Positions 20,480 to 23,485 of a stretch of 24,820 nt of DNA are shown here, piece by piece. A program made the position numbers and the translations under genes. The first letter of the stretch is position 1. The number at the start of each line of letters is the position of its first letter. The DNA comes from a virus (taxonomy: Duplodnaviria > Heunggongvirae > Uroviricota > Caudoviricetes): the IMG/VR virus record IMGVR_UViG_2711768053_000009. One strand, 5' to 3'. The notes under the pieces are model-generated. The model was not told the origin of the DNA, made no database searches, and worked only from the letters and a program-made list of their open reading frames with translations.

Positions 20480-20686
20480 ATGCCGAGGGATTCGTCACAT
20501 ACTTACGCCTGTTGCCTGGATCATTTGTACTGCATTAGTGGCGGGTACATTGATTTACCTGAAAAACTGATAAAGGAGTTACGAGAAATGGGCGAAAGAT
20601 TACCCAACTGGAAATTCCTGTTGATATGGTGTGTGTTTTTCTTATTTGGACTATCCGCTTTGATTCAGGCGATCCGGTGGCGTTAA
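20480..20686 (+). CDS. Small membrane protein, paralog 1 (core 32 aa from ATG 20588; N-terminal extent uncertain)
   Basis: Core MGERLPNWKFLLIWCVFFLFGLSALIQAIRWR has a hydrophobic helix; AAGGAG lies 9 nt upstream of ATG 20588. Paralogous to the gene at 20806..20952. Confidence 0.5.
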   Translation: MPRDSSHTYACCLDHLYCISGGYIDLPEKLIKELREMGERLPNWKFLLIWCVFFLFGLSALIQAIRWR

Positions 20687-20805
20687 TTTTTACATAACTT
20701 TACATATGGCAATGAAAAAACAACAAATTACTTCATGGATGATTTGCTACGTGAACTCAAGCATAGAATGACATGGTGTTAAGTAATTGTTACAAAGGGA
20801 TTGGT

Positions 20806-20952
20806 ATGAAGTTTCTTTTCATTGTTTATAAATTACTAGTTGAGATTCGAGTTATGGGCGAGAAATTTCCCAATTGGAAGTTTTTACTTATCTGGTTGGT
20901 CTTTCTGATTCTGGCGTCTGGATATTTTGTTGGGCAGATCCGATGGTGGTGA
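20806..20952 (+). CDS. Small membrane protein, paralog 2 (48 aa; alternative start ATG 20854 gives 32 aa)
   Basis: MKFLFIVYKLLVEIRVMGEKFPNWKFLLIWLVFLILASGYFVGQIRWW; AAGGGA lies 5 nt upstream of ATG 20806. Versus paralog 1, the conserved N-terminal half differs mostly by synonymous codon changes, which indicates purifying selection. Confidence 0.5.
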   Translation: MKFLFIVYKLLVEIRVMGEKFPNWKFLLIWLVFLILASGYFVGQIRWW

Positions 20953-20959
20953 GGGCACG

Positions 20960-21307
20960 ATGAGGACATGGGGCCGCGTCACCGACGTGAACGGCAATAA
21001 AAAATGGGTTGCTGTAGAATCTGACGCCAACGGTGATTTCTCCTACGGCTGGCTGACGACGCTCATTCAGACGTTAAAGCTGGGGGTGGGGGAGTCGCCG
21101 TTTTATGCGAATTACGGCATTCCAGCACAGCAGTGCATCGTGCAGCAGATTTACCCGGACTACTATGTGAACATGGTTCAGCAACAGTTTGCCGGGTATT
21201 TTGCATCACTGGCAATTTCAAGGGTAGATGGGGCTGAGAACCCCACCTATAACATCGATGTTGTGTTTTTTAATGGGACCAGTTACCGGATGCAGGTTCC
21301 GGTGTGA
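20960..21307 (+). CDS. Baseplate protein, gp25/W-like (Mu gp46 position), putative
   Basis: ATG at 20960 with GGTGAGGG upstream; about 115 aa; lies between the spike and J-like genes. The provided ORF 20927..21307 starts upstream inside paralog 2. Confidence 0.45.
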
Positions 21308-21657
21308 GGCAAATTTTCGGGCATCAGTTGGGCCAGTGGCGTGTTAAGAAGTTCATCGCGTGGCATGACAATCCATCCACTTTTGCGTAGTAAGTGAATT
21401 GCCCATTCTGTGGTGATAACTGAGCCTGATTTGTGGTGCTCAATGTGGGTAACCGAGCCGTTTCTGACGCGCATGATGATGTCAACATTCAGAGGGGATT
21501 GTGTGCTGGTGGTATCTTCGCGCAGCTTCTTCTCGCACTCGATGAAGTATCGGCGGATCTGGCGTCCTTTTTCGTTGCGCTCGACCATTGCCAGTTCTTT
21601 GGCGGTGTCCAGGGTGAGGTGGTAGTCCTTGCGGCGGCGGCCTGGAGTTTTCGCCAA
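21283..21657 (-). CDS. KilAC-domain (phage antirepressor C-terminal domain) protein, probably a truncated remnant
   Basis: Translation ...[42 protein letters not shown] matches the conserved KilAC antirepressor C-domain. The ORF has no ATG before residue 24 (TTG is the only possible start), and an in-frame stop lies 11 codons upstream at 21691-21693. The 3' end overlaps the convergent gp25-like gene. Confidence 0.4.
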
Positions 21658-21669
21658 ATTTGGCGAAAA
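21648..21669. repeat. Perfect 22-bp palindrome TTTTCGCCAAATTTGGCGAAAA
   Basis: Read directly from the sequence; the reverse complement is identical. It lies at the boundary between GC-rich phage sequence and the AT-rich island and overlaps the first codons of the KilAC ORF. Confidence 0.85.
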
Positions 21670-21697
21670 TAGAATGTAGTCTAAAAAAGTCTAACAA

Positions 21698-22126
21698 CTA
21701 CTTATTTTCAGACACACATTTTTCAAAATTTTTTATCGAGTCATTGAAAACTGAATTCATTATCTCATAAGTTTTATGATCTATCTTTTTGTCTAGATAA
21801 TCTTTATTGTTTTTCTTTATTTTTTCCTTAGTATCAGTAATGGCTTTTTTACAAATTTGATAATTTATCTGCTGATCGTTTAAACCGCCTCCATTGACAA
21901 TTAGAGAAATAGCTGTATTCATGTCTTGTATATTGTAGGAATAGTGTAATGTGTCATTGGTTGGATGGCTGGGATTATCATAATAAACATTACCGAATTT
22001 CATTAACATTATTCCCGATTTCCCATAAACAGAATCAGATAAGTATGCGGCATTCATATTTCCGGCAGTAAAATTATCAGTATGACATATAAAACGCCGA
22101 CCATATTGAAGCTGTAATTTATGCAT
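21698..22126 (-). CDS. AT-rich cargo ORF encoding the mature part of a putative secreted protein (unknown function)
   Basis: 142-codon ORF in sequence that is visibly far more AT-rich than its surroundings. No convincing RBS at its own ATG. It is in frame with the upstream signal-peptide ORF 22178..22237, separated by a TAA. Confidence 0.45.
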   Translation of the reverse strand: MHKLQLQYGRRFICHTDNFTAGNMNAAYLSDSVYGKSGIMLMKFGNVYYDNPSHPTNDTLHYSYNIQDMNTAISLIVNGGGLNDQQINYQICKKAITDTKEKIKKNNKDYLDKKIDHKTYEIMNSVFNDSIKNFEKCVSENK

Positions 22127-22177
22127 AGCATCGTTGCAGGCAGCTCTTATTAGACGGGTATGATTATTGTCTTCTTC

Positions 22178-22237
22178 TTAAGCGCATACTGAAAATGAAA
22201 GAGTGGATGCAATTAGCAATGAAATTAATTTCTTCAT
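22178..22237 (-). other. Orphan signal-peptide ORF (MKKLISLLIASTLSFSVCA-stop), in frame with the downstream AT-rich ORF
   Basis: Minus-strand ATG at 22237-22235 with AAGGG 6 nt upstream. The 19 codons encode a typical Sec signal peptide ending V-C-A, followed immediately by TAA (plus-strand tta at 22178-22180). 17 further sense codons then lead to the ATG at 22126 in the same frame. Confidence 0.6.
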
Positions 22238-22258
22238 AAATTACCCTTGAGATTAACT

Positions 22259-23485
22259 ATGTCAGAAATACCAATTACTATGACCAGTGCGGGTGCGCAG
22301 CCTACGCCACCCAATGATTTGCTTGCGAATCTTATCACCAGGGTTGCTGAAAAAGTACCTGGATATACAGCCAACCTTCCGGCGGGACTTATTACAGACC
22401 TTGCCAGCACGGCAGTCGGGGCGGTGGCATTAATAGATCAGGCGCGGGTTGATCTTATTAACTCCGTAAGCCCATACGGCGCGAATATTCCGTTACTGAT
22501 GCAACTCGGAAACATTTATGGAGCACAGAAGGGATTAAGTACAAATACGGCGGTATACGTGGTGTTTGAGGCGTTGCCGGGATTTGGTATCCCTAAAGGA
22601 TTTGTGGTTGGAGACGGTAACTACCAGTATGCGGTTTCCCGCGATACGGTGGTGCCGGAAAGTGGGCAGACTGAGCCAGTCTACTGTGTGGCCACAACGT
22701 CAGGCTCATGGGCTGTACCGGAAGGGACCGTGACGCAGGTCATTACATCAGTACCCAAAGACCAGCCTGTAAAATGCACGAACCTTACCGCAGGAATGCC
22801 CGGTCAGGAGGCGAAGACGTGGGCATCTTACCGTGCCGAAGTCATGGAGTCCGGCATGTTTGGTGTGCAGGGAACACCGGATTGCTTTAAAGCGATGCTC
22901 AAATCAGTAAGCGGTGTGCGAGAAAACCTGATTTCTTTCCGGCAGTCGTCGCTGGGGAAATGGGTTGCGGTTGTTGGTGGCGGTGATCCGTATGACGTGG
23001 CTTATGCGATTTACAAATCTGTACCGGATATTTCGAAACTGACCAACGATGTAACCAATCCATCCGGTGCGGCAGTGGAAAAACGCACGGTTTCAATAAC
23101 CGTTTCGCCGGACGTTTATCAGGTGCCGTTCGTTATCCCGTCATCACAAAACGTCATGGTGCTAATCACCTGGAACACGGTGTCTGATGATTATGTTGAC
23201 CCGGCGGGTATTGCTATGGCTGTGCAGCAAAACGTTGCTGATTACATCAATTCTATTGAAGTCGGTCACCCGATAAATCTGTTGCGAATCCAGGATATTT
23301 TTACCAGCTCCGTAAAATTGCTGGTTGATGCGACGTTGATCTCAACAATCAGTGTGAGCATTGGCATTAACGGCCATATTGTTCTTCCGGCAAAAGACAC
23401 AAGCCTGGTTTATGGCGATACCTATTCCTATTTTTCGACGGTGGCATCACAGGTTCAGGTCAATAAGTATGCAATATCTGACTGA
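22259..23485 (+). CDS. Baseplate J-like protein (Mu gp47 / P2 gpJ position)
   Basis: About 408 aa; lies between the gp25-like and gpI-like genes. ATG at 22259; the provided ORF starts at TTG 22247. Confidence 0.5.
   Translation: MSEIPITMTSAGAQPTPPNDLLANLITRVAEKVPGYTANLPAGLITDLASTAVGAVALIDQARVDLINSVSPYGANIPLLMQLGNIYGAQKGLSTNTAVYVVFEALPGFGIPKGFVVGDGNYQYAVSRDTVVPESGQTEPVYCVATTSGSWAVPEGTVTQVITSVPKDQPVKCTNLTAGMPGQEAKTWASYRAEVMESGMFGVQGTPDCFKAMLKSVSGVRENLISFRQSSLGKWVAVVGGGDPYDVAYAIYKSVPDISKLTNDVTNPSGAAVEKRTVSITVSPDVYQVPFVIPSSQNVMVLITWNTVSDDYVDPAGIAMAVQQNVADYINSIEVGHPINLLRIQDIFTSSVKLLVDATLISTISVSIGINGHIVLPAKDTSLVYGDTYSYFSTVASQVQVNKYAISD

Follow-up and report, generated by a model that had tools for sequence, protein, structure and literature searches.

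A nonsense allele of a prophage accessory gene for a putative exported protein at a variable site beside baseplate J

Results

Organization of the locus

The 24,820-nt stretch of DNA analysed here (IMG/VR record IMGVR_UViG_2711768053_000009, Caudoviricetes), hereafter the window, corresponds to a prophage late region ~95% identical to Escherichia phage Rac-SA53. Its backbone is also ~95% identical to a record named Actinobacillus phage vB_Apl-pPE4 (PP818812.1, locus L007 of our set; 95% identity over 79% of the window), a surprising match for a phage with a Pasteurellaceae host, for which a misassigned host or contamination may be responsible. On the minus strand of the window, antisense to the tail operon, lies a split gene that we call the cargo gene. 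To its left is a 115-aa tail/baseplate-module gene on the plus strand (20960..21307), which borders the variable region in every related locus, and to its right a 408-aa plus-strand gene of the baseplate J/gp47 family (22259..23485; weak matches to PF04865, baseplate J/gp47 in RefSeq).

The cargo gene opens at ATG 22237-22235; AAGGG (22248-22244), its ribosome-binding site, precedes the ATG at a gap of 6 nt. The first 19 codons of what was once the precursor form a signal-peptide segment (22181..22237, minus strand), MKKLISLLIASTLSFSVCA, and are followed by the nonsense codon TAA (22178..22180, minus strand), which replaces Gln20. Codons 21-179, the rest of the mature domain, continue in the same frame to a TAG stop (21698..22177, minus strand). 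Cys34, Cys51, Cys129 and Cys174 of the 179-aa precursor are found in this mature part and a fifth cysteine in the signal peptide. Seventeen in-frame sense codons, EEDNNHTRLIRAACNDA, separate the TAA from ATG 22126, at which begins an ORF of 142 codons ending at TAG 21700-21698. It is this 142-aa ORF, within 21698..22177, that gene callers annotate, and no Shine-Dalgarno-like motif was found within 15 nt of its ATG.

The cargo-gene ATG and the divergent baseplate J ATG at 22259 are separated by exactly 21 nt (22238..22258), a spacer that on the minus strand includes the AAGGG. Simple scans revealed neither a sigma-70 consensus promoter upstream of the cargo gene nor an intrinsic terminator downstream of it and, given the length of the spacer, a cargo-gene promoter would plausibly lie within the 5' end of baseplate J. 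An earlier note on this DNA, made from the window alone, had described the AAGGG, the start at 22237, the signal peptide and the in-frame TAA, as well as the 17 sense codons, the 142-codon ORF lacking a ribosome-binding site of its own and the 21-bp distance to the baseplate J start; all of these hold.

Directly downstream of the cargo gene, also on the minus strand, is a 5'-truncated AntA/AntB antirepressor gene, ant (21283..21681). The antirepressor N-terminus has been lost in the window, in strain SC418 and in E. coli W, and RefSeq describes the gene in the SC418 and W loci as 'incomplete; missing N-terminus'; the lesion is absent from loci of the type found in strain M8. In these M8-type loci the cargo gene is followed by a promoter-like site, TTTACA-16-TATGAT, that has been lost in the window, SC418 and W. 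At the start of the truncated ant remnant there is a perfect 22-nt palindrome, TTTTCGCCAAATTTGGCGAAAA (21648-21669), which is absent from M8-type and Rac-SA53 loci.

Farther left, a gap of G+C ~0.40 between a 237-aa baseplate gene and the 115-aa gene contains two tandem small ORFs on the plus strand, of 68 and 59 aa (20480-20686 and 20773-20952). Both share MGE(R/K)(L/F)PNWKFLLIW followed by a hydrophobic helix, and a match to rac58 of Rac-SA53 was found for the second. The pair has the look of a single-pass membrane mini-protein that was duplicated, and this gap may be a further small site for cargo.

The stop codon is a genuine and recent change from CAA

DNA alignment shows the TAA of the window to be CAA (Gln20) in intact alleles, a single C-to-T change. 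By megablast, a 601-nt region was matched in 25 complete E. coli chromosomes. The intact CAA is found in E. coli W, M8, P393-F10, STEC719 and many other assemblies, where the gene encodes the 179-aa precursor, and RefSeq/PGAP annotates a single 179-aa CDS in E. coli W and its derivatives, M8, P393-F10, STEC719 and ETEC strains; SC418, which is 99.8% identical to the window, is annotated with the 142-aa ORF only. Among our loci, the 179-codon frame is open in L002-L005, L008-L012, L016-L018 and L020-L023. Judged by these alignments the frame is no chance product, since it is open in many other genomes.

A single-base difference from the intact alleles is what a sequencing or assembly error looks like, and the earlier note had offered mis-sequencing as an alternative, one under which the gene would be intact in the source strain. 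That alternative is now excluded. The TAA is present in three distinct prophage sequences, namely the window, SC418 (13 of 6,160 positions different from the window) and the IMG/VR contig 2563366953_000002 (L019; 88 of 9,119 different), and the triplets GCT TAA GAA were read in all ten of ten further loci fetched from independent NCBI, Logan and ENA assemblies. The site also lies outside any homopolymer. Because the codon is identical in all ten of these other assemblies we take it to be real, and we consider the error reading effectively refuted and its probability negligible.

The exact 142-aa product of the window is recorded from at least 24 contigs; intact alleles are far commoner, occurring on 334, 221, 22 and further contigs. 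The stop occurs in a single, closely related sublineage only, and a sense codon is found at this position in all other alleles and in distant homologues. Compared with five other alleles, Q20* is the sole private change of the window allele, an indication that inactivation was recent. By these comparisons the window gene is a recent nonsense pseudogene, and most related prophages keep the gene intact. The search for intact alleles in related strains that the earlier note had proposed thus found them, with CAA at the stop position, and this bears out the note's preferred reading of a recently inactivated gene for a secreted four-Cys protein of ~180 aa. Together with the antirepressor lesion, this means that the prophage lineage carries at least two lesions in the slot.

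We also considered that the stop might be tolerated or used, by ochre readthrough, a suppressor, re-initiation or a role for the 19-aa peptide, so that the allele would not be null. That the allele circulates in at least 24 contigs with the rest of its ORF intact speaks for such a possibility, but an intact remainder is also expected after a recent mutation. Moreover, the stop is restricted to one sublineage, all diverged relatives have a sense codon, and a re-initiated product would be without the signal peptide and Cys34. UAA followed by G gives efficient termination in E. coli, which counts further against a tolerated stop, and we regard this reading as very improbable. Programmed readthrough or recoding was rejected on the ground that the stop position is not conserved in relatives.

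Independent decay of the gene is also seen in other loci (L024/L053, L047 and L026). In L024/L053 and L047 the copy is ~60% identical and carries several frameshifts, stops and deletions. Two observations concern alleles in which Gln20 or the full frame is retained. The E. coli W allele (L002, 3024-3563) differs from the consensus by A10T, A37D, A63T, G75R and A132T, all of them amino-acid changes; under a strict test G75R and A132T are private, there is no private synonymous change, and selection in that lineage may have been relaxed or altered. The 154-aa protein P0026 (WP_252515818.1) has its signal peptide and Gln20 intact and ends after residue 154; it may be a further nonsense allele, Lys155 to stop, that arose independently.

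The intact gene belongs to a family of predicted exported proteins

A profile search (E ≤ 0.001) that covered 1.84 billion representative proteins exhaustively returned eight proteins, the already known P0003 and seven more distant ones, and a second, indexed search added one relative, from Serratia quinivorans. Megablast of the gene against the phage collection gave no match, a scan of genome contigs no relatives and a metagenome scan a single relative with a 13-nt deletion at 5x coverage. Identity to the relatives is 33-45% and their lengths are 177-202 aa; all that are full length carry a signal peptide of their own, and Cys34, Cys51, Cys129 and Cys174 are conserved across them. Over the whole gene, dN/dS among diverged intact alleles (Nei-Gojobori) is 0.08-0.21, and for codons 1-37, the signal peptide and linker, it is below 0.3. 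The intact gene is therefore a real gene, being under purifying selection.

The signal peptide of the window precursor consists of the basic start MKK, the hydrophobic core LISLLIASTLSFS and the cleavage motif V-C-A. Although their sequences have diverged, all full-length relatives show the same features: the highest Kyte-Doolittle value over 10 residues lies between 2.3 and 3.4 in every member, and the cut-site motifs in relatives are AYA, SYA, SHS, VFS and SHA. On these heuristic grounds the intact protein carries all the hallmarks of Sec-type export with cleavage by signal peptidase I. We rejected a lipoprotein processed by signal peptidase II, as F-S-V-C is a poor lipobox relative to [LVI][ASTVI][GAS]C and Cys18, within the signal peptide, is replaced by Tyr in several members (P0002, P0003, P0007 and P0014). 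The sole member with a possible lipobox (FYGC) is P0009, a distantly related 302-aa fusion.

The start of the gene might instead be placed at ATG 22126, the true product being a 142-aa cytoplasmic protein and the signal-peptide ORF fortuitous. This is the ORF that gene callers annotate, the homologue P0011 (on a 1-kb contig) is 141 aa long, and some callers start even later, at Met79, giving proteins of 101 aa (P0005, P0006 and loci L008-L012, from NCBI assemblies). But the signal peptide and linker are present in all full-length homologues, codons 1-37 are under purifying selection, the conserved Cys34 lies upstream of Met38, and ATG 22126 has no ribosome-binding site. The 101-aa calls, for their part, come from loci in which the full 179-codon frame is open; they are gene-caller mis-starts, probably caused by the A+T-rich, atypical 5' end, and we rejected the idea that these homologues are further pseudogenes. 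The earlier note had held that homologues always beginning at the internal ATG would argue for a cytoplasmic protein; the full-length homologues all begin with a signal peptide, and there is scarcely any chance that the internal start is the true one.

Predicted structure and searches for relatives

A first AlphaFold run on 7 near-identical sequences gave a pLDDT of 63 and was replaced by an AlphaFold2 run on an 11-sequence alignment, for which pLDDT was 87.5 and pTM 0.75. The model, in which residues 1-20 are disordered, consists of a helix at residues 25-45, a small sheet of four strands accompanied by two short helices, and a long helical hairpin formed by residues 121-148 and 154-177. From their positions in these secondary structure elements, the four conserved cysteines are likely to form the disulfides Cys34-Cys51 and Cys129-Cys174.

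No whole-domain fold match was obtained among the solved structures of the PDB or the predicted viral structures of BFVD; the matches were to generic helical hairpins only, and one of them, to the alpha-hairpin of MexA (E 0.76), was not counted as evidence. The protein gave no significant match in Pfam, PHROGs, NCBIfam, PADLOC or PDB sequences: PADLOC returned 0 matches and PHROGs only the signal-peptide region, at E above 0.004, and matches to AAA_lid, DUF7003, WBM0748 and PME-inhibitor were dismissed as sub-threshold noise on the Lys/Asn-rich helical hairpin. Among lysozyme inhibitors (Ivy, PliC/MliC, PliG and LprI), neither Pfam nor the folds of solved structures gave a match. The ~180-aa family thus lacks annotation, and the libraries searched yielded no structure related to it over the whole domain. 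Literature searches for Rac-SA53 and the WP accessions returned nothing relevant.

The gap beside baseplate J holds interchangeable cargo

In 56 IMG/VR loci with baseplate J in common, we surveyed the gap from the 115-aa gene to J. The commonest cargo, in ~21 loci, is a 391-aa protein encoded on the plus strand (L081:2285-3460 and about 20 other loci) with an HSDR_N domain (E 5.6e-14), the N-terminal domain of type I restriction R subunits; it is possibly an uncharacterised defence nuclease. The family of the window's 179-aa protein occupies the gap in ~10 loci and ant with rac62, with or without rac61, in another ~10. In ~8 loci the cargo is ant with a 248-aa plus-strand signal-peptide protein (L033:2712-3458 and similar) whose N-terminus bears a weak LprI/DUF1311 lysozyme-inhibitor resemblance (E 0.0033, below the Pfam cut-off), and ~3 loci contain membrane proteins, which are of two kinds. 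As this survey makes plain, the slot cannot be described as a site for exported proteins only, the commonest cargo being the cytoplasmic HSDR_N protein.

In two of the ~10 family loci, L047 and L053, the copy has decayed badly. In L053 (= L024) the heavily decayed 179-aa gene adjoins a pair encoding a 190-aa protein and a 138-aa YafO-family toxin (PF13957, E 1.9e-16; L053:1919-2909), and the same pair is found at L074:482-1472. None of the slot cargo proteins matched a PADLOC model, and profile comparison with the rac62-type and 248-aa cargos indicated no relationship to the window's protein. Rac-SA53 and vB_Apl-pPE4 have a backbone like that of the window and other cargo in the slot (rac62, rac61). 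Distant homologues of the window's gene, in Serratia and other prophages, are found in the same slot and are likewise divergent from baseplate J. Taken together, the loci compared indicate that the gap between the 115-aa gene and baseplate J is an accessory-gene hot spot.

The G+C content of the gene is 0.31-0.39 in five diverged members, compared with 0.48-0.52 for their loci; in the window, it is 0.33 over 21600-22200 and ~0.50 in the backbone. Because relatives of 33-45% identity in other Enterobacterales prophages share both the slot and the low G+C, the gene is a long-standing occupant of the slot and no recent arrival. The earlier note's description of the gene as A+T-rich cargo stands, with this refinement as to its age in the slot.

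Discussion

We conclude that the locus is, in all likelihood, a nonsense-inactivated copy of a prophage accessory gene, or moron, for a predicted exported protein. The gene lies between conserved genes in some phages and is absent or replaced in relatives among the 56 loci, and its base composition differs from that of its neighbours. In intact form, it would presumably be expressed from the lysogen as a 179-aa precursor with a Sec signal peptide predicted to be cut after Ala19. The product would be a soluble periplasmic protein of ~18.5 kDa, probably stabilised by the two predicted disulfides; its predicted fold begins with a helix, continues with a small beta-sheet and ends in a long hairpin of helices. 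With CAA (Gln20) changed to TAA in the window sublineage, translation would end right after the signal peptide, and re-initiation at Met38 would yield a cytoplasmic protein without the export signal and Cys34. Nothing functional is expected to be made from the window copy, and the gene would be dead there.

What the intact protein does can be addressed only tentatively. Our leading guess is that it might act at the cell envelope for the benefit of the lysogen, most likely by excluding superinfecting phage. The periplasm is indicated by the signal peptide, the conserved Cys pairs and the possible lipoprotein fusion P0009; exclusion is suggested because the ant neighbour recalls the immI-sieA arrangement of P22 and because the slot also takes nuclease-like and toxin-antitoxin cargo. 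A test for coupling of cargo type to tail-fibre type found none: the family gene is found alongside no fewer than seven types of tail fibre, and other cargo, too, accompanies these types. This lack of tracking speaks against a receptor-blocking protein tailored to the fibre of the same phage. In its widest form the suggestion, one we put forward with similar caution, is that the intact protein could represent a new family of periplasmic exclusion or envelope-modifying factors, with a fold absent from the structure libraries searched, swapped at a previously undescribed hot spot with nuclease-like and toxin-antitoxin cargo.

Nearly as likely as phage exclusion is a role in host fitness or virulence, for example in envelope stress or in serum or lysozyme resistance, a reading to which we would give about one chance in a handful or slightly better. 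Prophage morons near tail genes often encode exported fitness proteins such as Bor, Lom and SodC, another cargo of this slot has the weak, sub-cut-off LprI-like N-terminus, and carriers of the gene include ETEC, STEC and mouse-gut strains. On the other hand, the protein resembles none of these factors in sequence or fold, other slot cargo looks defence-like or toxin-antitoxin-like, and the gene has been repeatedly lost.

For the window itself the finding carries little weight, as it concerns a gene that recently became a pseudogene, in a prophage whose antirepressor gene has also lost its front. Its wider interest is that it defines an unannotated family of predicted exported proteins with a confidently modelled structure for which the libraries searched gave no match, and that it points to the gap beside baseplate J in Rac-SA53-like prophages as a site at which accessory genes are swapped. 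Natural intact alleles are available in E. coli W and M8, where the proteins are WP_000733802 and WP_000733801, respectively, and a natural null allele in SC418; if the exclusion or envelope reading is true, the Q20* allele would be a natural knock-out. The analysis also flags an annotation problem, in that callers start the gene at Met38 or Met79 in many genomes.

Close parallels are lambda bor and lom and Gifsy-2 sodC, morons of prophages that specify exported proteins and sit among tail genes or next to them. As in those cases, an extra gene of low G+C lies between conserved structural genes, varies among relatives, runs opposite to the late operon and would encode a small exported protein. 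The differences are that there is no sequence or fold relation to the window's protein and that simple scans did not find a promoter and terminator of its own here.

Envelope-located superinfection-exclusion proteins include Cor of phi80 and N15, Llp of T5, SieA of P22 and Ltp of TP-J34. Like these, the window gene would give a temperate phage a small exported protein and, as with sieA in the P22 immI region, the gene adjoins an antirepressor gene, here in the late region; the P0009 relative, as a possible lipoprotein fusion, adds to the likeness. In contrast to them, the window protein has no PHROGs or PADLOC match and is predicted to be soluble, not a lipoprotein or membrane protein, and its cargo type is uncoupled from that of the tail fibre.

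Nearest at hand are the slot occupants rac62 and rac61 of Rac-SA53 and ORF64 of vB_Apl-pPE4, which share with the window gene position, orientation, the 21-nt spacer and the ribosome-binding site, and encode proteins of 154-182 aa with an N-terminal signal peptide. In sequence and profile they are unrelated to it (BLASTP E 0.1; hhalign probability < 1%), and they too are uncharacterised. On a broader scale, P2-like phages have hot spots for accessory and defence genes. The present site belongs to another phage group, is another gap (the 115-aa gene to baseplate J) and holds cargo without a PADLOC model match, but it resembles those hot spots in being a fixed gap filled by interchangeable, unrelated cargo, here including the HSDR_N protein and the YafO pair.
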